Source: Gemmatimonadota bacterium | GTDB lineage: Bacteria > Gemmatimonadota > Gemmatimonadetes > Palauibacterales > Palauibacteraceae | DNA length: 26,509 bases | Reading direction: 5' to 3' | NCBI GenBank assembly: GCA_039588275.1 | Contig: JBDHAC010000040.1 | Location: 1-26,509, forward strand | Shown: piece by piece, positions 10,810 through 21,041 of the stretch | How the letters are laid out: the number at the start of each line of letters is the position of its first letter | Position numbering within the stretch: the stretch's first letter is position 1 | The notes under the pieces: generated by a model | Seen by the model: the letters and a program-made list of their open reading frames with translations, nothing else | Database searches by the model: none | Told to the model about the DNA's origin: nothing | Made by a program: the position numbers and the translations under genes

Positions 10810-11250
10810 ATGACGAGGCTCGTTCTCCCCCGCTCCTCACGCGCGCACTGGCGGGCGCGACGACGGGTCCCGTGGATCATCGGGCTCGTGTTGGGGGTCG
10901 CCATATGGCTCGCGGCGTGCTCGCCATCGATTCTCGGCACGGATCCCAATACGGGCTTCGACATCCTCGTTACGCGGGGCCCGATCCAGCCCGTCGCCAG
11001 GGAGGGGGAGGACAACTCGGCCCCTGTGGAGGATGCCCTGGTGCTCATCCGGCGCACGGACGCCTCGGGTGACACTCGCGTTCGGACGGACGCAGCCGGG
11101 AACGTGATCGCGTTGCTCGTGCCGGGCGACTATCAGGTCGAGGTGCGAGAGTGTCCGGGCGCGATGTCACTCCCTGCCCCCACTGCTGCTTCTGTCACAC
11201 CCGGTGAGCTGACGGCGCTCGCGTTCTCCTGCGACACCGGTATCCGCTAG
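10810..11250 (+). CDS. Putative lipoprotein with carboxypeptidase-regulatory-like (prealbumin-like) beta domain
   Basis: GAAGAGG SD before ATG 10810; Arg-rich N-region, hydrophobic stretch, LAAC lipobox; TDAAG..LVPGDYQV motif; C-terminal CDTGIR. Confidence 0.65.
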   Translation: MTRLVLPRSSRAHWRARRRVPWIIGLVLGVAIWLAACSPSILGTDPNTGFDILVTRGPIQPVAREGEDNSAPVEDALVLIRRTDASGDTRVRTDAAGNVIALLVPGDYQVEVRECPGAMSLPAPTAASVTPGELTALAFSCDTGIR

Positions 11251-11268
11251 CCGGGCGCTCCACGGGAT

Positions 11269-11297
11269 TTCCCACAGAATCGAGTGGCCCCTATATT
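11269..11297 (+). promoter_or_regulatory. Sigma70-type promoter for metH operon
   Basis: TTCCCA (11269-11274), 17 nt, TATATT (11292-11297), just upstream of the riboswitch. Confidence 0.5.
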
Positions 11298-11327
11298 GCA
11301 CGGCCGAGTACAACATGACAGCCGATC

Positions 11328-11383
11328 GTACGTGGTGATTTGAGGCAGATTGCAGCCACGCTAAAAAAGTCGCTAAAGAGCCC
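11328..11383 (+). ncRNA. SAM-II (SAM_alpha-type) riboswitch aptamer
   Basis: CGTGG-TGATTTG-AGGCAGA-TTGCAG-CCACG-CTAAAAAAGTC-GCTAAAG-AGCC: P1 CGTGG/CCACG plus conserved TGATTT, TTGC, A-rich linker and GCTAAA; directly upstream of metH. Confidence 0.9.
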
Positions 11384-11417
11384 GCCCCGGCGCGACTAGC
11401 GGCGGGGCTTCTTTGTT
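11384..11417 (+). terminator. Intrinsic terminator forming the riboswitch expression platform
   Basis: GCCCCG-G-CGC [GACTA] GCG-G-CGGGGC followed by TTCTTTGTT, between the aptamer and the GGAGG SD (11418-11422). Confidence 0.75.
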
Positions 11418-11426
11418 GGAGGGTAT

Positions 11427-14400
11427 GTGAGGCAAGATCGCGACAGCCGGGCAGAGGTGCTTCGGGCGGCGTGCGAGGACCGCATCCTCGTGCTCGATGG
11501 TGCGATGGGGACCATGATCCAGCGCTTCCGCCTCGAAGAGAGCGACTACCGGGGTGAGCGGTTCGCGAACCACCCCACGCCGCTGCAGGGGAACCACGAC
11601 CTCCTGTCGCTCACGCGACCGGATGCGATCGCGGACATCCACCGTGCGTATCTGGATGCGGGCGCGGACATCATCGAGACGAACACGTTCAACGCGCAGG
11701 CGATCTCACAAGCCGATTACGGCACGGAAGCCGCCGTAGCCGACATGAACCGGGAAGCCGCCAGGATCGCACGGGCCGCAGCGGACGAGTTCTGGGCCCT
11801 CGACCCGACGCGACCGCGCTTTGTCGCCGGCAGTCTCGGTCCGACCAACCGAACGGCATCGCTCTCGCCCGACGTGGAGAACCCGAGCTTTCGGGCGGTG
11901 ACGTTCGACGAACTGGCAGGCGCATATCGGGAGCAAGCCGAAGCGCTGATCGCCGGCGGCGTGGATCTCCTCCTCGTGGAGACAGTGTTCGACACGCTGA
12001 ACTGCAAGGCGGCCCTGTTCGCGCTCCTGGATCTGGTCGAAACGCTCGATGTCGAGGTCCCGCTCTGGGTGTCGGGGACGATCACCGATCGCAGCGGGCG
12101 CACCCTGTCCGGGCAGACGACAGAGGCGTTCTGGTGTTCGATTCGGCACGCGAATCTGTTCAGTGTAGGCCTGAATTGCGCACTCGGGGCTAGCGACCTG
12201 CGCCCCTACGTGGAGGAGCTCTCTCGCCTTGCGGACACTCGAGTGAGCTGTCACCCGAATGCAGGTTTGCCCAACGAGTTCGGCGAGTACGACGAGAGTC
12301 CCGAGGCGATGGCGGCGGTGCTTGGCGGGTTCGCAGACGATGGACTCGTCAACGTCGTCGGGGGCTGCTGCGGGACAACGCCCGATCACACACGGGCCCT
12401 CGCCGACCGGGTGCGTGGCCTGGCACCCCGGGCTCCGGCCCGGCCGTCGAGACTCCCGCGCCTGAGCGGGCTCGAGCCACTCGTCATACGTCCGGACAGC
12501 CTGTTCTTGAACATCGGGGAACGCACGAACGTAACGGGCTCGGCACGCTTCGCCCGGCTCATCCAGGAGGACCGCTTCGAGGACGCGATCGACGTCGCGC
12601 GTGACCAGGTGCTGAACGGCGCGCAGATGATCGACATCAACATGGACGAAGGGCTTCTCGATTCGGTCGAGGCGATGACGCGTTTCCTCAACCTGATCGC
12701 GGCCGAGCCGGACATCGCCCGCGTCCCTGTGGTTGTCGACTCGTCGCGCTGGGAGGTGATCGAGGCGGGTCTGAAGTGCCTGCAAGGGAAGGGGGTGGTG
12801 AACTCGATCAGCCTGAAGGAGGGCGAGGATCTCTTCCTGGAGCAGGCACGGCTCGTCCGGCGGTACGGGGCCGCCGTGATCGTGATGGCGTTCGACGAGG
12901 AGGGGCAGGCCGACACCGAGGACCGCAAGGTGGAGATCTGCGAGCGCGCGTTCACGCTCCTCACCGAAGACGTCGGCTTTCCGCCCGAAGACATCATCTT
13001 CGATCCGAACATATTCGCGGTCGCGACGGGCATCGAATCCCACAACGAATACGGGCGGGCGTTTCTAGGGGCCACGCGGCGCATTAAGGAGACGCTCACG
13101 GGCGCCCTGGTGAGTGGCGGGGTGAGCAACTTCTCGTTCGCGTTCCGCGGCAACAACGCGGTGCGGGAAGCGATGCACTCGGCCTTCCTGTACCACGCGA
13201 TTCAAGCCGGCCTCGACATGGGCATCGTCAACGCGGGCCGCCTTCCCGTATACGACGATATCCCCGGCGAGCTTCTCGAGGCCGTGGAGGATGTCCTCTT
13301 CAACCGCCGCGCGGACGCCACGGAGCGTCTGACCGAGATTGCCGGCCGTGTGAGCGGTCAGACAGAGCGCTCGGGACCCGATCTCGCCTGGCGGGATCTG
13401 GGGGTGGAGGAGCGCCTGAAGCATGCGCTCGTCGAAGGGATCGTCGACTTCATCGAAGAAGACACCGAAGAGGCGCGTCTGATGTACGAGCGCCCGCTGA
13501 GCGTAATCGAAGGTCCCCTCATGGGTGGCATGCAGCGGGTGGGCGACCTGTTCGGAAGCGGGAAGATGTTCCTCCCGCAGGTGGTGAAGAGCGCCCGAGT
13601 CATGAAGAAGGCGGTGGAATACCTCGTCCCGTTCCTCGAAGCGGAGCGCGCGGCGGGTGGCGACGGAGGCGCGAGCGCCCGCTCGAAAGGGAAGATCCTG
13701 CTCGCTACCGTGAAAGGCGATGTGCACGACATCGGGAAGAACATCGTGGGAGTGGTTCTCGGCTGCAACGACTACGAGGTGATCGATCTCGGCGTGATGG
13801 TTCCGGCCGACCGCATCCTGGAGACCGCTCGCGAGCAGGGGGCCGACATCATCGGACTGAGCGGGCTCATCACCCCCTCGCTGGACGAGATGGTGCACGT
13901 GGCCGGGGAGATGGAGCGTCAGGAGCTCGAGACTCCGCTGCTGATCGGGGGCGCGACCACGTCTCGGAAGCACACGGCCGTGCGGATCGATGAGAAGTAC
14001 AGGGGACCGATCGTGCACGTGCTCGATGCGTCACGGTGCGTGGGCGTCGTGTCCAGCCTGCTCAATCCAGAGCGTCGCGAGTCCTTCGCGCGCGGGGTCG
14101 CCGAGGAGTACGAGCGGGTGCGAGTCGAGTTCGCCGAGCGCGAGGGCGGACGACGGCTGGTGTCGCTCGAGGAGGCGCGCGCCAATCGCTGGACGTGCGA
14201 TTGGGACTCATATACGCCCCCGCGACCCCCGAAGCCCGGGATCGAAGTCTACGGGAGCTACTCCATCGAGGAGCTGATCGGCTTCATCGACTGGACTCCC
14301 TTCTTTCAGGCTTGGGAGCTGCGGGGCCGGTATCCGGCGATCCTGGAGGACCCTGTCGTGGGGGAGTCGGCGCGCGGGCTGTTCGATGACGCCAGGGCGC

Positions 14401-15161
14401 TGCTCGAGCGCATCGTGGAAGAGCGGCTGCTCACGGCGCGGGCCGTGGTCGGGCTGTTTCCCGCCGCATCGAGCGGTGACGACGTGATCCTGTTCGAGGG
14501 GTCGGATCGGACGCGAACCGGGGCCATCGCTCACCACCTGCGTCAGCAGATGGAGCGGCGGGACGACCGTCGCAACGTCTGTCTGGCGGACTTCGTGGCG
14601 CCCGTGGATCGGCACGCGGAGGACTGGATCGGCGCGTTCGCCGTGACCGCCGGCCTGGGTCTGGAGGAGCTGTGCGCGGCCTTCGAGGCGGACCACGACG
14701 ACTACCGAAGCATCCTCTCGAAGGCGCTGGCAGACAGGCTGGCCGAGGCCCTCGCGGAACGCTTGCACCAGCGGGTTCGGGCCGAGCTGTGGGGGTACGC
14801 GCCGGGCGAGTCGCTCGACATCGAGGCCCTGATCGCCGAGGCCTACGACGGGATCCGACCGGCGCCCGGTTACCCGGCGTGTCCGGATCACACGCAGAAG
14901 CGCCTGCTCTTCGACCTGCTGGGTGTGCCGCAGGCCATCGGGGTCGAGTTGACCGAGAGCTATGCCATGTGGCCGGCCGCATCGGTGAGCGGTTGGTACT
15001 TCTCGCACCCGGACTCGTTCTACTTCGGGGTCGGAAGAATCGATCGTGACCAGGTCGCGGACTACGCGTCGCGCGCCGGGATGCCGCTTCCGGAAGTCGA
15101 GCGTTGGCTCTCGCCCAGTCTGGCGTACACGCCCGAACCCGAGCCCGTGGGCGCCCCGTGA
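11427..15161 (+). CDS. metH: Cobalamin-dependent methionine synthase (full four-module enzyme)
   Basis: [10 protein letters not shown], Zn ligands GLNC and GGCCG, pterin domain [10 protein letters not shown], cap [14 protein letters not shown]12 motif DVHDIGKN, reactivation domain [10 protein letters not shown]. Confidence 0.98.
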
Positions 15162-16999
15162 GCGAGCGATTGCGGGAGCTGATCGAAGACGGACGCGTCC
15201 ACCTCATGGACGGGGCCATGGGAACCGTGCTGTACACCCGGGGCGTGTTCGTGAACGTGTGCTACGATGAGCTGAACCTCACCCGGCCGGACGTCGTGCT
15301 CGGCGTTCATTCGGACTACGTGCGGGCCGGCGCGGAGGTGATCGAGACCAACACGTTCGGCGCGAATCCGGTGAAGCTGTCCGCCTTCAATCTCGACGAG
15401 CAGACCGAAGAGGTGAACGAGGCGGCGGCCGGTCTCGCGCGGCGCGCGGCCGGCGACCGGGCCTGCGTGCTGGGGGCGATCGGTCCGCTCGGGATCCGCA
15501 TCGAGCCCTGGGGGCCGACCTCGATCGACGAGGCGGTCGACTTCTTCAGTCGGCAAGCGACGGGACTCGCCGAGGGCGGAGTAGACGGGTTCGTGCTCGA
15601 GACGTTCAGCGACATCGAAGAGCTGCACGCCGCGCTGTCAGGCGCGCGCGCGGTCACGGATCTGCCGGTGTTCGCTCAGATGTCCTTTGGGGAGGCAGGG
15701 GAGACGGCGTACGGGGCTACCGTCGAAGCCGTCGCTGAAGCGGCGGAGCAATGGGGCGTGGAGGTCTTCGGTCTCAACTGTTCGCTGGGGCCGTCGGCGG
15801 CGCTGGAGACCGTGGAGCGGATGTTGGCCGTTACATCCCTCCCCATCTCCGCCCTGCCGAACGCAGGACTCCCCCGCGATGTCGGCGATCGCAAGATCTA
15901 CCTCGCGAGCCCCGAGTACATGGCCCGATACGCACGCCGCATGGCGGAGGCCGGAGCCAGGTTCATCGGCGGGTGTTGTGGGACGACACCCGAGCATACC
16001 CGGCATATGGCCGAGTTGTTGGGTGCGCAGCGGAATCGAACGCCGCGGGTGCGGGTCGAGGCGGTTCACGACGTGCCCGATCCGAATCGGCTCGAGCCTG
16101 TCTCGCTACAGGATCGCTCCGCGCTCGGGCGCAAGCTCGCCGCAGGAGAGTTCGTGCACACGGTTGAGCTGACGCCGACGCGCGGGTGGGAGCCGCGGGA
16201 GTTGATCGCGCGCACTCGGCATCTTCGGGACGCCGGTGTCGACGCGGTGAATATCGTCGATCCGCCGGCGGCAAGCAGCCGGATCGGCTCGTTGCCGGCA
16301 GCGATCATCATCGAGCGCGAAGTCGGCGTCGAGGCGGTCGTACACTACACGTGTCGCGACCGCAACATGCTGGGCATGGTGACCGACTTGCTTGGTGCAG
16401 CGGGCGCGGGGGTCAGGAACCTCCTCCTGGTGACCGGTGATCCCCCCCGCAGCGGGCCGTACGACACAACGGGAGTCTACGACATCGACAGCATCGGACT
16501 GACAAACGTGGTACACCAGCTCAATCGCGGACGGGATCCGGGCGGCTCCGCGATCGGTGCACCCACCTCGTTCGTCATCGGGGTGGCGCTGAACCAGACC
16601 GCGATGGACCAGGAGGACGAGCTGCGTCGCTTCGCGTGGAAGGTCGAGGCCGGCGCCGACTTCGCGATCACCCAACCGGTATTCGATCCCGATCGCTTTC
16701 TGGAAGCGCTCGCACCGGTCCGTGAGTACGGCATACCGGTGTTGGCGGGCATCTGGCCCCTGCTGTCTCTCCGAAACGCGGAGTTCCTAGCCAACGAAGT
16801 ACCGGGGTTGGAGGTGCCGGAGTGGGTCGTCGACCGCATGCGCGATGCCGAAGAGGAAGGACGCGAAACCGCGGAGCGCGAAGGCGTGATACTGGCGCGA
16901 GAGATGCTCGCGGCCGTACGGGACTCCGTTCAAGGCGTGATGATCAGTGCGCCCCGAAATCGCGTCGAGCGCGCACTGGCGGTGCTGGGCGACGGCTAG
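15158..16999 (+). CDS. yitJ: Bifunctional homocysteine S-methyltransferase / methylenetetrahydrofolate reductase (YitJ-like)
   Basis: GTG start overlaps the metH TGA; N-domain DGAMGT, GLNC, PNAG, GGCCGTT; C-domain [34 protein letters not shown]. Confidence 0.93.
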
Positions 17000-18769: not shown

Positions 18770-19330
18770 TTGGCGTCGCAACCGGATGCCCGGCATGCCG
18801 TCGAGGAGATGATCCGTATCCTCTCCCGCACCCCGGGCACGATCCGGGCTCTCCTCGAGGATCTCCCCGAAGACCTGCTGCATGCGGACGAGGGCGAGGG
18901 CACGTTCAGCCCGTTCTCCGTGCTCGGTCACCTGATCGAGGGAGAGACGAAGGACTGGATCCCCCGCGCGCGCATCATCCTGTCCGAGGGGTCGTGGCGC
19001 CCATTCGAGCCCTTCGACCGATTCGCGCACGTGGATCGCACCGTCGGCCGGAGCCTGACCGATCTCCTGGAGGAGTTCGAGCGGCTGAGGACGGCCAACC
19101 TGGCCAGCCTGCAGGAGCTGCTGGAGGGGGGTGCTGAGCTGGATGCGGTCGGCATGCACCCCGAATTGGGAGAAGTGACGTTCGCCGAGCTGCTCGCGAC
19201 GTGGGTTGTCCATGACCTGAATCACCTGGCTCAGATCGCTCGCGTCGTCGCGCGGCAGTTCGAGGACGATGTCGGACCCTGGAAGGCGTACCTTCCCATT
19301 CTCACACCTCGCGAGCCGCCTCCCGCGTAG
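18770..19330 (+). CDS. DinB/YfiT-family protein (metal-dependent thiol transferase-like)
   Basis: LSRTP..L..LL, VLGHL..GE..DWIPR, HPELG.VT, WVVHDLNHLAQI His triad; TTG 18770 with GGAAGGAGG SD. Confidence 0.88.
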   Translation: MASQPDARHAVEEMIRILSRTPGTIRALLEDLPEDLLHADEGEGTFSPFSVLGHLIEGETKDWIPRARIILSEGSWRPFEPFDRFAHVDRTVGRSLTDLLEEFERLRTANLASLQELLEGGAELDAVGMHPELGEVTFAELLATWVVHDLNHLAQIARVVARQFEDDVGPWKAYLPILTPREPPPA

Positions 19331-19346
19331 CCCGGTCCGCCCGCGC

Positions 19347-20465
19347 TCAGCCAGCGGCGAGGCCCCGCTCCTCACGCGCCTGCGCGACCGCGCCGGCCAG
19401 CGACTTCTCGTACGGCGGTCGGTGTATACCCTGCTCCGTGACGATGCCGGCGATCATCCCGGCCGGCGTGACGTCGAACGCCGGGCTCCACACTGCGGCG
19501 TCTTCCGGTGCCGTGAGCGTGCCAAAGCCTCGTCGGACCTCGTCCGCGCTTCGGTGCTCGATCGGGATCTGTCCACCGGTGGCCGTGTCGAGGTCGACGG
19601 TCGAGGTGGGCGCGAGCACGTAGAATGGAACTCCGTGGTGCTGGGCGAGGACCGCGAGTCCGTACGTGCCCACTTTGTTCGCTACGTCCCCGTTCGCCAC
19701 GATGCGATCCGAGCCCACGAACACGATATCCGGTGGCCTCTGAGCGAAAAGCGCACCGGCCATGTTGTCGGAGATGACGGTGACCTCCACACCCGCTTGC
19801 GAGAGCTCCCATGCGGTCAGTCGGCTTCCCTGCAAAAGGGGGCGGGTCTCGTCCGCGAACACGTGCACGCGCAAGCCGCGCTCGGTGGCCACGTACACGG
19901 GGGCGAGAGCCGTTCCGATCCCACCCGTGGCCAGGGCTCCCGCGTTACAGTGGGTGATCACGCTCGCCCCGTCAGGGAGCAGCGAAGCGGCATGCTCCCC
20001 GATCCGGCGGCACATCCGCCGGTCCTCTTCGAGAATCGCACTCGCTTCGAGGGCGAGACGCTCGGCCAGCGCTTCCGCCGTCTCGTCGGGTCGTGGCGGG
20101 AAGGCCGCCCGCATGCGGTCGATCGCCCACTGCAGGTTCACGGCGGTGGGGCGGGCGTCAGCGAGGCGGTCTGCCCAGGAGGTCAACCGGTTCAGCAAAT
20201 GCTCGCTCATGAGGTCCGCGTTCCTCGCCTCGCGGCGCGCGAGGGCCGCGAGGCCCATCGCAGCCGTGATACCGATGAGGGGAGCGCCGCGCACGCGGAG
20301 ACTCTGAATCGCTTCCTCTATATCGTCGAGCGCGCGAAGCTCGAGCTCCACGCGCTCGCCCGGGAGCCGGGTCTGGTCGAGGATCACGAGTCCAGCGCCA
20401 TCCTCGGTCCAGCGGATCGTCTCGGGGATCGCCAGGCGGTCGTTCATGCGCCCCAAGCTATGCAC
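19347..20465 (-). CDS. mtnA: S-methyl-5-thioribose-1-phosphate isomerase
   Basis: LDQTRLP, VRGAPLIG, RPTAVNL, THCNAGALAT, DETRPLLQGSRLTAWEL, NGDVANKVGTY, PAFDVTP. GTG 20465 has a GGAGG SD; alternative ATG at 20447. Confidence 0.96.
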   Translation of the reverse strand: MHSLGRMNDRLAIPETIRWTEDGAGLVILDQTRLPGERVELELRALDDIEEAIQSLRVRGAPLIGITAAMGLAALARREARNADLMSEHLLNRLTSWADRLADARPTAVNLQWAIDRMRAAFPPRPDETAEALAERLALEASAILEEDRRMCRRIGEHAASLLPDGASVITHCNAGALATGGIGTALAPVYVATERGLRVHVFADETRPLLQGSRLTAWELSQAGVEVTVISDNMAGALFAQRPPDIVFVGSDRIVANGDVANKVGTYGLAVLAQHHGVPFYVLAPTSTVDLDTATGGQIPIEHRSADEVRRGFGTLTAPEDAAVWSPAFDVTPAGMIAGIVTEQGIHRPPYEKSLAGAVAQAREERGLAAG

Positions 20466-20564
20466 GGCTGCCTCCCCCGTCAGCCTCGGGGGGCGGCCGC
20501 ACCGCTGGTCCGGCGCCCACCCACGGCCGTAACTTTCTCACATACCACTGCAAGGAGCGACACG

Positions 20565-21041
20565 ATGACCACTAGACAGGCAATGCTAGTCCTAGTCGGC
20601 GCGCTCCTGGCGAGCGGGTGCGGCCCCAGCGCTGAGGAGGAGGCCGCACGCCAGGCAGAGGACTTGCGCATGGCTCGCGCCGACTCGGTCGCGACCGCGG
20701 AAGCCATGTACGACTCCGCGGTCTTCGACACCATCCAGTGGGCGAGCCAGGACACTCTTCTCGCGCGCGGCGCGCTGGTGTGGCGGGTCAGCTGCCAGAA
20801 ATGCCACGGAATGGAAGGCCGCGGTGACGGTGCGCTCGCCGTAGAGCATACGCTCGACATGCCGGACCTGTTGGTGGATGACTGGCAGTACGCGGGCGAT
20901 GTTACGGCTATTCGGCATCGGGTCTACGTCGGGCATGAATCCGAGATGCCGGCGTGGGGTTTGTACGGGCTGTCCTACCGGGATGTCGATGCCGTAGCCA
21001 AGCACATCGAAGCGGTGATCCGCGCCCCATCGACGGATTGA
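20565..21041 (+). CDS. Monoheme cytochrome c lipoprotein
   Basis: AAGGAG SD, ATG 20565, lipobox LASGC, heme motif CQKCH, distal MPAW axial Met; it is the C-terminal part of track ORF 19269..21041. Confidence 0.88.
   Translation: MTTRQAMLVLVGALLASGCGPSAEEEAARQAEDLRMARADSVATAEAMYDSAVFDTIQWASQDTLLARGALVWRVSCQKCHGMEGRGDGALAVEHTLDMPDLLVDDWQYAGDVTAIRHRVYVGHESEMPAWGLYGLSYRDVDAVAKHIEAVIRAPSTD

Follow-up and report, generated by a model that had tools for sequence, protein, structure and literature searches.

Does the SAM-II-like element upstream of metH in the window (the whole 26,509-nt stretch of DNA analysed) control transcription through a terminator, and if so, which strand would pass the state of the aptamer on to that terminator? 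The original prediction was a close SAM-II consensus followed by a terminator and a competing anti-terminator pairing. The Rfam covariance-model check bore out the first part: cmscan of the whole window matched SAM_alpha (RF00521) at 11322-11397 on the forward strand with 52.4 bits (gathering score 36, E 2.8e-9), and this match covered the full model (1-79) and was the sole above-gathering match in the whole window. The 4.1-Mb genome had only this one SAM_alpha match, none of the 14 control genomes had any, and this genome (85.8% complete) yielded no SAM-I match. The SAM-II long loop model (RF01726) was rejected with 28.6 bits against a gathering score of 44, and the locus was filed under RF00521. 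The predicted features lay at, or a few bases from, the positions foreseen, and the coordinates are collected in Table 1.

Table 1 Features of the metH leader and its downstream genes in the window
Feature	Position	Strand	Basis
Promoter-like site TTCCCA-17 nt-TATATT (inferred)	11269..11297	+	9/12 matches
Rfam SAM_alpha match; functional aptamer about 11331-11378	11322..11397	+	cmscan
P1 hairpin: CGUGGU (11331-36) with GCCACG (11355-60)	11331..11360	+	cmscan structure line
P2 3' strand (sensing strand) GUCGCUAAAG	11369..11378	+	consensus alignment
Proposed anti-terminator: GUCGCUA (11369-75)/UAGCGGC (11397-403) and GCC (11380-82)/GGC (11389-91)	11369..11403	+	folds, RNAalifold
Terminator hairpin: 6 bp, G11390.G11402 mismatch, 3 bp, loop GACUA	11384..11408	+	folding
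U-tract UUCUUUGUU, 7 U of 9, interrupted	11409..11417	+	sequence; same place in relatives
Shine-Dalgarno (SD) GGAGG 11418-22; metH GTG start 11427-29	11418..11429	+	sequence, ORF list
metH, cobalamin-dependent methionine synthase, 1244 aa	11427..15161	+	Pfam domains
yitJ-like gene, homocysteine S-methyltransferase + MTHFR fusion	15104..16999	+	domain search

The conserved SAM-II core was present and aligned with the consensus, namely GAUUU in L1, UUGC in the loop and GCUAAAR in the 3' strand. The P1 loop contains the GAUUU of L1 and the P2 5' strand AUUGCA, and the loop reads AUUGC where the Rfam consensus has CUUGC. All 6 pairs of P1 form in 24/24 relatives. In the P2 pseudoknot, which the Rfam SAM_alpha model leaves unscored, the window has the pairs U11351-A11375, U11350-A11376, G11352-C11373 and C11353-G11372, and the next position, A11354.C11371, is unpaired; over 77 distinct aptamers this third P2 pair was G-C in 32, A-U in 8, G-U in 4, U-A in 1, A.C in 20 and other in 12. 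According to the portions of text cited here, the metX SAM-II crystal structure (2QWY; PMC3303485, PMC10907184) is an H-type pseudoknot whose 3' strand reads ...GC-U-AAA(R), as in the window, and the unpaired U of that strand reads the adenine of SAM (PMC3303485). Mapped onto the window numbering, the SAM-contacting unpaired U and A-run would have their counterparts at 11374 and 11375-78, and by analogy with the solved metX structure SAM binding would keep the sensing strand GUCGCUAAAG in the pseudoknot/triplex. The element in the metH/yitJ-like leader is, by its sequence, a SAM-II (Rfam SAM_alpha) riboswitch aptamer, and it is predicted to bind SAM.

The leader lies upstream of, and on the same strand as, the methionine-synthesis genes metH and yitJ-like, which were the anticipated targets. 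MetH has S-methyl_trans, Pterin_bind, B12-binding_2, B12-binding and Met_synt_B12 domains, all five far over their cut-offs, and the YitJ-like fusion follows; the TTG start of the latter as listed overlaps metH by 58 nt, so its true start may be further downstream. Upstream of the aptamer, 1 promoter-like site was found against a mean of 0.1 over 50 shuffles, and its -10-like part is kept, as judged by eye, in the same-genus loci L002 and L003. The SD was where it had been placed, but it starts 40 nt past the last aptamer base (G11378), not about 35 nt.

Between the aptamer and the SD, the predicted GCCCCG..CGGGGC terminator with its U-tract was present, and a homologous hairpin is conserved in relatives. 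The hairpin starts just 6 nt past the aptamer and runs GCCCCG (11384-89), G, CGC (11391-93), GACUA, GCG (11399-401), G and CGGGGC (11403-08). The hairpin region 11379-11417 folded alone gave -21.8 kcal/mol (z -2.08, 8/200 shuffles as good), which means that its energy by itself is only modestly unusual, and the whole leader 11322-11430 folded no better than shuffles (z -0.56, 55/200 as good). An automated terminator scan of 11000-11700, which required an uninterrupted stem and a loop of 3-8, returned 0 sites because the stem has the G.G mismatch and the 'loop' of the outer stem is longer than 8; we read this as a limit of the scan definition, not as absence of a terminator. The hairpin and U-tract were found in 80 of the 86 regex-found leaders of the phylum sample, and after deduplication a terminator-like hairpin with a U-tract lay within 45 nt in 68/85 leaders against 3/407 control points (positions inside downstream DNA), or within 150 nt in 79/85 against 14/407. 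Terminator stem sequences vary widely among the leaders; in the relatives the upper stem was 92-93% paired with no both-side changes, and only this upper stem was counted, the lower stem shifting its register between rows of the MAFFT alignment. The hairpin and U-tract thus likely act as an intrinsic terminator, and transcriptional OFF control of metH/yitJ-like is well supported by comparison, since so many leaders and so few control points have the terminator within 45 nt.

The idea that the 3' tail of the aptamer does the switching was also supported, by prefix folds, a shuffle test on 66 distinct leaders and RNAalifold. Kinetics were approximated by prefix folds only, that is, by folding the growing transcript. 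With the tail free, AGUCGC:GCGACU (-14.7 kcal/mol including P1) formed once 11395-401 was out, GUCGCUA:UAGCGGC took over at 11402-05, and the terminator did not appear until 11406; when the tail was blocked, it nucleated directly. The loop of the proposed anti-terminator houses the lower left arm of the terminator. The window tail duplex had -11.3 kcal/mol, and 1 of 300 shuffled tails was as good. In nascent RNA of the 66 leaders, tail pairing stabilised by -7.1 kcal/mol on average (shuffled tails: -2.7 kcal/mol), with a gain of -5 kcal/mol or better in 47/66, and the real tail was unmatched by any of 10 shuffles in 39/66. The gain in the window was -8.9 kcal/mol and none of its 10 shuffles matched it. 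The paired tail bases averaged 6.0 for real and 3.6 for shuffled tails, which means that shuffled tails also pair appreciably.

When 24 metH leaders were given to RNAalifold with no structure supplied, it returned P1 and exactly both anti-terminator helices. One base of the right arm (alignment column 85) finds a pairing partner in the tail in 24/24 leaders (U-A 14, U-G 7, C-G 3) and never pairs with its partner in the terminator (G.A 13, G.G 10, C.A 1). Other relatives reach the same tail pairing through other sequences: L108 by a 10-bp helix, L150 and L162 by a different flank, and L118 and L120 by a tail complement that sits in the left arm. With 7 + 3 bp, the helix of the window falls short of the 10 bp seen in some relatives. 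In the anti-terminator columns one pair changes both sides, in 3/24 relatives, and 30/500 column shuffles reached the observed score, so significant covariation is not claimed. The aligned leaders are also related to one another, and the aptamer by itself would keep the tail conserved. Five proteobacterial genomes yielded six SAM-II leaders, and the best tail duplexes, for five leaders only, were -6.8 to -12.2 kcal/mol, a set too small to speak for the wiring in that group. By computation, then, an alternative helix that is mutually exclusive with the terminator uses the strand that is sequestered in the ligand-bound aptamer. These models make the aptamer 3' strand the likely switching element, and the helix of 11369-75/11397-403 with 11380-82/11389-91 appears a better anti-terminator candidate than the pairing first proposed.

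The same folds bear on whether the aptamer steers the hairpin at all. It could be a constitutive attenuator or an sRNA-generating terminator, with SAM acting on mRNA or leader stability or through promoter-proximal effects. This has been discussed for Sinorhizobium meliloti metA, for which the part of Scheuer 2022 (PMC9373788) cited here describes a terminator after the SAM-II element, no predictable riboswitch-driven antiterminator and a SAM-dependent stabilisation of leader RNAs. The window terminator is indeed thermodynamically dominant (-35.3 kcal/mol against -25.8 for the anti-terminator in enforced folds), and tail pairing is slight in 19/66 leaders, which means that not all of them share the design. 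However, the tail-terminator complement is enriched over shuffles and was recovered by RNAalifold, the terminator begins very close to the aptamer, and the column 85 base, which in every leader pairs with the tail and in none inside the terminator, is hard to square with a constitutive terminator. We therefore regard an unsteered terminator as rather unlikely.

The original prediction had the aptamer steer the hairpin by another pairing, in which without SAM AAAGAGCCCGCC (11375-86) would pair with GGCGGGGCUUCUUU (11401-14), occupy the right arm of the terminator and the U-tract, and block termination. The complementarity is real: it comprises 12 pairs (one G-U) with two bulges and adds about -12 kcal/mol to P1 alone, and in the 24 relatives 76% of cells pair and two pairs change both sides. 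Column 50:96 of this helix reads A-U in 17, G-C in 3 and G-U in 3, and the genus to which the window belongs has the G of AAAG opposite the C of UUCUUU there. But the three G-C cases are one genus, and pairing of an A-rich tail with a U-tract follows from composition, as slid controls pair 46-57% of cells (P1 included). The minimum-energy fold with the terminator enforced stacks UAAAGAG (11374-80) on UUCUUUG (11409-15) beneath the intact terminator, so the A-tract:U-tract half coexists with the terminator and extends it instead of competing with it. As for the GC half, it is the same GC-rich arm in a register shifted by one; its 3' boundary does not move, and the hairpin would still abut the U-tract. 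In addition, this pairing falls 9.8 kcal/mol short of the terminator (-19.4 vs -29.2 kcal/mol including P1) and was never seen in the prefix folds. In intrinsic termination, moreover, the decision falls while the U-tract still sits within the polymerase as part of the RNA:DNA hybrid, which speaks against a pairing that has to capture it. An anti-terminator role is thus unsupported, the folding models indicate that this pairing is probably not the switching one, and we consider blocking of termination by it very unlikely.

Least probable is translational control, in which SAM-dependent folding would hide the SD as in the metX model: the best-studied SAM-II uses RBS occlusion in the accounts cited (PMC3303485, PMC10907184), and in the minimum-energy fold of the full leader GCCC (11380-83) pairs with GGGU (11421-24) adjoining the SD, but this 4-bp pairing is in the centroid only as part of an outer stem and is not conserved, the metX RBS lies within P2 and is occluded directly whereas the SD here is downstream of the aptamer, outside the pseudoknot and hairpin and with the terminator between, and in relatives the U-tract trails the hairpin whatever the distance to the start codon.

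We are fairly confident that a SAM-II aptamer and a terminator are combined in this metH/yitJ-like leader and that bound SAM switches transcription off through a kinetic switch. With SAM bound, the sensing strand (11369-78) would be locked into the P2 pseudoknot/triplex, the terminator (11384-11408) would nucleate as it emerges, and RNA polymerase would release at the U-tract (11409-17). Without SAM, the free strand would pair first with GCGACU (11392-97) as the top of the terminator emerges and next with UAGCGGC (11397-403), aided by GCC (11380-82)/GGC (11389-91). This alternative hairpin would hold the upper right arm with the lower left arm looped out, and terminator formation would be held back until the polymerase had cleared the U-tract and gone on into metH and the yitJ-like gene. 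Since the terminator is by a wide margin the more stable structure, the choice would have to be kinetic, that is, co-transcriptional. A comparable use of a small H-type pseudoknot is the transcriptional preQ1-I riboswitch (Bacillus subtilis queC), in which an A-rich 3' tail docks as P2 with ligand and otherwise joins an anti-terminator. It differs from SAM-II in ligand and family.

The wiring of SAM-II to a terminator is not new, and the design is ordinary. The original prediction took SAM-II as usually hiding the SD, a background that is not supported: in the passages cited, Corbino 2005 (PMC1273637) and Barrick & Breaker 2007 already name terminators as the commonest SAM-II platform, and metX is just the best-studied case. 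In the Agrobacterium tumefaciens metA leader as described there (Corbino 2005), a SAM-II of the same family with the same kind of target (methionine/SAM synthesis) is followed by a putative intrinsic terminator, placed between its P2 and the ORF, and the arrangement is interpreted as a genetic OFF switch; the present leader differs in its host, probably Gemmatimonadota and not Proteobacteria, in its target metH + yitJ-like and in the loop AUUGC. A terminator is likewise predicted to form on SAM binding in S. meliloti metZ, where the cited part of Scheuer 2022 (PMC9373788) reports a predicted Rho-independent terminator that gives the RZ sRNA and a detected terminated leader RNA of about 100 nt; metZ thus has in vivo data, whereas the window leader is known from sequence alone, a look for RNA-seq runs over 11200-12200 having turned up none. 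A precedent for the switching step is the leader element of beta-proteobacterial metX/metZ, for which a 'terminator-antiterminator mechanism' was put forward (Leyn 2014, PMC4239095, text in part) and which was later named canonical SAM-II (McCown 2017, PMC5473149, likewise in part). In that element, too, a terminator hairpin that is not conserved, and then poly-U, come after a pseudoknotted SAM-II type, and an anti-terminator was speculated to form via one terminator arm; the explicit speculation concerned GC-rich regions 3 and 4, whereas the candidate here is the P2 3' strand, which would pair with the terminator's loop and its upper right arm.

The locus leaves knowledge of the SAM-II class unchanged, and its use for annotation is that the control of metH and yitJ-like in this genome can be attributed to a known riboswitch. 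SAM-II biophysics has centred on one translational example, and the many natural terminator-coupled variants are ready-made constructs with which one can ask how a small pseudoknot steers a far more stable terminator co-transcriptionally.

The lineage was expected to be one where SAM-II is little described, and this agreed with the literature: among related riboswitch papers, judged by titles and abstract openings, no paper on SAM-II in Gemmatimonadota was found, and the name 'Gemmatimonadetes' was absent from the McCown 2017 text as cited, its distribution figure aside and with the Rfam species lists outside the search. Of 4 loci labelled Gemmatimonadota, SAM_alpha was present, within the DNA fetched, only in L024 and L042; L019, which has the closest MetH (70%), and L080 had none within the DNA fetched. 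In the wider sample, SAM-II, whose Rfam name still says 'alpha-proteobacteria', was above cut-off in 101/151 genomes of the host phylum, often in 2-5 copies, which means that it is common in another phylum. We lean slightly towards a joint reading in which SAM-II is the main SAM sensor of this mostly uncultured phylum and the metH/yitJ leaders share one wiring, with the sensing strand GYCGCUAAAR itself and the conserved GCC behind it invading the terminator loop and upper right arm and one right-arm base kept mismatched for pairing with the sensing strand. If true, this shared wiring would be the first sequence-level, directly testable diagram for a transcriptional SAM-II, a point left unspecified or speculative in the parts of the literature examined. 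A scan of 82 downstream ORFs from the phylum sample showed a homocysteine S-methyltransferase domain in 60 and MTHFR alone in 3.

The metH leader of the window contains a genuine SAM-II riboswitch. Scanning the entire window with Rfam gave a single match over the curated cut-off, SAM_alpha (RF00521) at 11322-11397 on the forward strand, which scored 52.4 bits against a cut-off of 36 (E 2.8e-9) and spanned the whole model, so the identity assigned in the original prediction was confirmed. The only other related match at a permissive threshold, RF01726 (SAM-II long loop), reached 28.6 bits and was below its cut-off of 44. The outermost P2b position (window 11348 and 11378; columns 20 and 50 of our MAFFT alignment of 24 metH leaders) covaried, being U with A in 18/24 leaders and G with G in 6/24; the six G/G leaders came from two separate genera and agree with the Rfam consensus. 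Among 77 distinct aptamers, this position was U/A in 38, G/G in 13, G/A in 14 and A/G in 8.

Features of the metH leader in forward-strand coordinates of the window
Feature	Position	Strand	Description
Promoter-like site	11269-97	+	
P1 stem	11331-36 with 11355-60	+	
P1 loop		+	contains GAUUU and AUUGCA
Aptamer 3' strand	11369-78	+	GUCGCUAAAG
Terminator hairpin	11384-11408	+	six pairs, G11390.G11402 mismatch, three pairs, loop GACUA
U-tract	11409-17	+	UUCUUUGUU
SD	11418-22	+	GGAGG
GTG start	11427	+	begins 1244-aa ORF

Pfam analysis showed that the ORF beginning at the GTG is MetH, with five out of five domains, and that ORF 15104-16999 is a fusion of homocysteine S-methyltransferase and MTHFR, that is, YitJ-like. 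The genes after the yitJ-like ORF sit on the opposite strand, so the transcription unit consists of two genes. As listed (TTG at 15104), the yitJ-like ORF shares 58 nt (15104-15161) with the end of metH, and its true start is probably further downstream because the Pfam domain begins at residue 34; close coupling of the two genes is possible. Elsewhere in the window, a 590-aa ORF (19269-21041, forward strand) had a C-terminal Cytochrome_CBB3 domain as its sole Pfam match (E 1.1e-7), and Pfam gave nothing for its first ~500 residues.

The terminator hairpin has a folding energy of -21.8 kcal/mol (z -2.08), which 8 of 200 shuffles equalled. The terminator scan around the leader returned zero sites, the whole-leader fold was not better than shuffles, and the folds of the window alone prove little. 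For the comparison across the phylum, 40 further hits were retrieved, and 86 leaders were picked from the phylum sample by matching the aptamer core with a regular expression (4 loci had no match to it). The finder required a hairpin (minimum 5 pairs, -9 kcal/mol or better) followed by a U-rich window, and this combination was found in 80/86 leaders. After duplicates were removed, a terminator-like hairpin lay within 45 nt of the aptamer in 68/85 leaders and within 150 nt in 79/85, versus 3/407 and 14/407 for control start points inside downstream DNA, which supports the predicted terminator after the aptamer. Structure and U-tract persisted though the stem sequences varied widely between leaders. 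Judged from sequence, the locus is most likely a transcriptional OFF switch of metH and the yitJ-like gene.

Pfam scanning of 82 downstream ORFs (loci L001, L003, L016 and L144 were left out) identified MetH (S-methyl_trans plus Pterin_bind) in 35, YitJ-like proteins in 14, homocysteine S-methyltransferase fragments truncated by the locus end in 11, MTHFR alone in 3 and other families in 9, and 10 had no Pfam hit. By the leader and ORF counts, therefore, an aptamer plus terminator before methionine-cycle genes is the rule in the phylum. Some targets were unusual. At L129 (G156:C265) and L132 (G125:C9), SAM_alpha (52.2 and 49.1 bits), each with a terminator, lay directly upstream of panB, the methylene-THF-using pantothenate gene for ketopantoate hydroxymethyltransferase (Pfam 328 and 335 bits), which is unusual as a SAM-II target. 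At L105 (G155:C138), SAM_alpha (56.9 bits) plus a terminator preceded a stand-alone response-regulator receiver gene. Further unusual targets were a GHMP kinase (L124), an aspartokinase-type AA_kinase (L166), a PALP enzyme (L167), alpha/beta hydrolases (L135, L160) and an aminotransferase (L164).

For the SAM-free state, pairing of the sensing strand (the 3' strand of pseudoknot P2, or tail) with the top of the terminator is, on computational evidence, better supported than the anti-terminator of the original prediction. GUCGCUA (11369-75) and UAGCGGC (11397-403) form a duplex of -11.3 kcal/mol, and 1 of 300 shuffled tails was as good. Prefix folds were used as a mimic of the emerging transcript with the sensing strand free or blocked. 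In the free case, AGUCGC paired with GCGACU (11368-73 with 11392-97) once 11395-401 had emerged and GUCGCUA with UAGCGGC once 11402-05 had emerged, and the terminator did not form before 11406; in the blocked case, the state that SAM binding would impose, the terminator nucleated immediately. The terminator is ~9.5 kcal/mol more stable than the sensing-strand alternative, so this switching model depends on kinetics, which the prefix folds can only approximate.

We analyzed the same pairing in 66 distinct leaders whose terminator lay no more than 45 nt away, each with ten shuffled tails. Tail pairing made the nascent RNA 7.1 kcal/mol more stable on average, versus 2.7 for shuffled tails; the gain was at least 5 kcal/mol in 47 leaders, the real tail was unequalled by any of its ten shuffles in 39, and 19 had little tail pairing. 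L108 and L114 had ten contiguous pairs between tail and terminator, GCUAAAACGC paired with GCGUUUUGGC in L150, L162 and L163, and L118 and L120 carried the tail complement in the left arm. From the MAFFT alignment alone, the RNAalifold consensus of the 24 metH leaders was P1 plus columns 42-46:81-85 and 52-54:64-66, in the window 11370-74 with 11398-402 and 11380-82 with 11389-91. Column 85 (11402), in the right arm, was tail-paired in 24/24 (U-A 14, U-G 7, C-G 3) and never Watson-Crick with its terminator partner (G.A 13, G.G 10, C.A 1), an asymmetry that argues for selection. Covariation was weak: one pair changed on both sides, and the score was reached by 30 of 500 shuffles. The leaders are kin, and the tail is conserved because the aptamer needs it.

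The original prediction instead had 11375-86 pairing with 11401-14 as anti-terminator, a wiring that we consider very improbable. It can be drawn with 12 pairs (-19.4 kcal/mol including P1), but the terminator is stronger (-29.2 kcal/mol), and with the terminator enforced and the rest free, the best fold (-35.3) placed UAAAGAG (11374-80) on UUCUUUG (11409-15) under the intact terminator; unconstrained prefix folds gave the same stack once 11415 was out. This stack coexists with the intact terminator, so the A-tract:U-tract half of the helix is compatible with it, and the remainder of the helix is the GC-rich arm after a register slip, with the same end base. Across the 24 metH leaders 76% of the helix cells pair, but 46-57% still pair in slid controls (P1 included), and the one attractive both-side change, column 50:96 (G-C for A-U), comes from three sequences of one genus. 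Of the proposed OFF switch, the SAM-II aptamer, a conserved terminator-like hairpin and the 3' strand as the probable switching element are supported; the specific anti-terminator pairing is not.

The SAM-II class and its terminator wiring are already known. Corbino et al. 2005 (PMC1273637) and Barrick & Breaker 2007 give terminators as the commonest SAM-II platform, and the platform mechanisms are stated with that comparison to be without experimental proof. The original prediction took SD occlusion as the usual SAM-II mechanism, which mirrors the best-studied single example, metX (PMC3303485, PMC10907184), and not the comparative picture. Scheuer et al. 2022 (PMC9373788) report a predicted terminator platform and a detected terminated leader for S. 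meliloti metZ, and Leyn et al. 2014 (PMC4239095) offered, as speculation, a terminator-antiterminator mechanism for an element of beta-proteobacteria that McCown et al. 2017 (PMC5473149) treat as canonical SAM-II. Our search of literature text found no paper on SAM-II in Gemmatimonadota, in line with the suggestion of a lineage little described for this class. Mildly new are the host phylum and the comparative support for which strands switch.

The window's genome (4.1 Mb, 103 contigs) is 85.8% complete; it has one SAM_alpha match, and SAM-I was not found in it. The best named relatives of the N-terminal part of MetH were Gemmatimonadota-labelled MAGs (70, 65, 63 and 63% identity), and in a FastTree tree of 81 rows the window's MetH was sister to one such MAG with local support 96; by this placement the host phylum is probably Gemmatimonadota. 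Also in favour of this phylum, SAM_alpha was present at 2/4 Gemmatimonadota-labelled loci (45 and 42.6 bits). At L019, the named MAG with the closest MetH (70% identity), the 1500 nt before metH gave no SAM_alpha match at gathering score, nor was the aptamer core seen there by eye, and therefore metH control differs among close MetH relatives. Of 41 relatives (G000 included), 18 had SAM_alpha at E <= 0.001 and 8 had it over the cut-off. The even sample of the phylum had a match in 107/151 genomes, over the cut-off in 101/151 and often in several copies; two families were almost saturated (65/71, 31/31) and others near-empty (1/16, 0/13). L008-L018 come from f2, a sister family within the same order, and tail-to-terminator pairing was not evident at these loci. 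Their aptamers scored low (27-37 bits, mostly below the Rfam cut-off) and preceded a yitJ-like gene, not metH, and their platform was long, with an extra GC-rich hairpin and then a terminator 65-102 nt past the aptamer.
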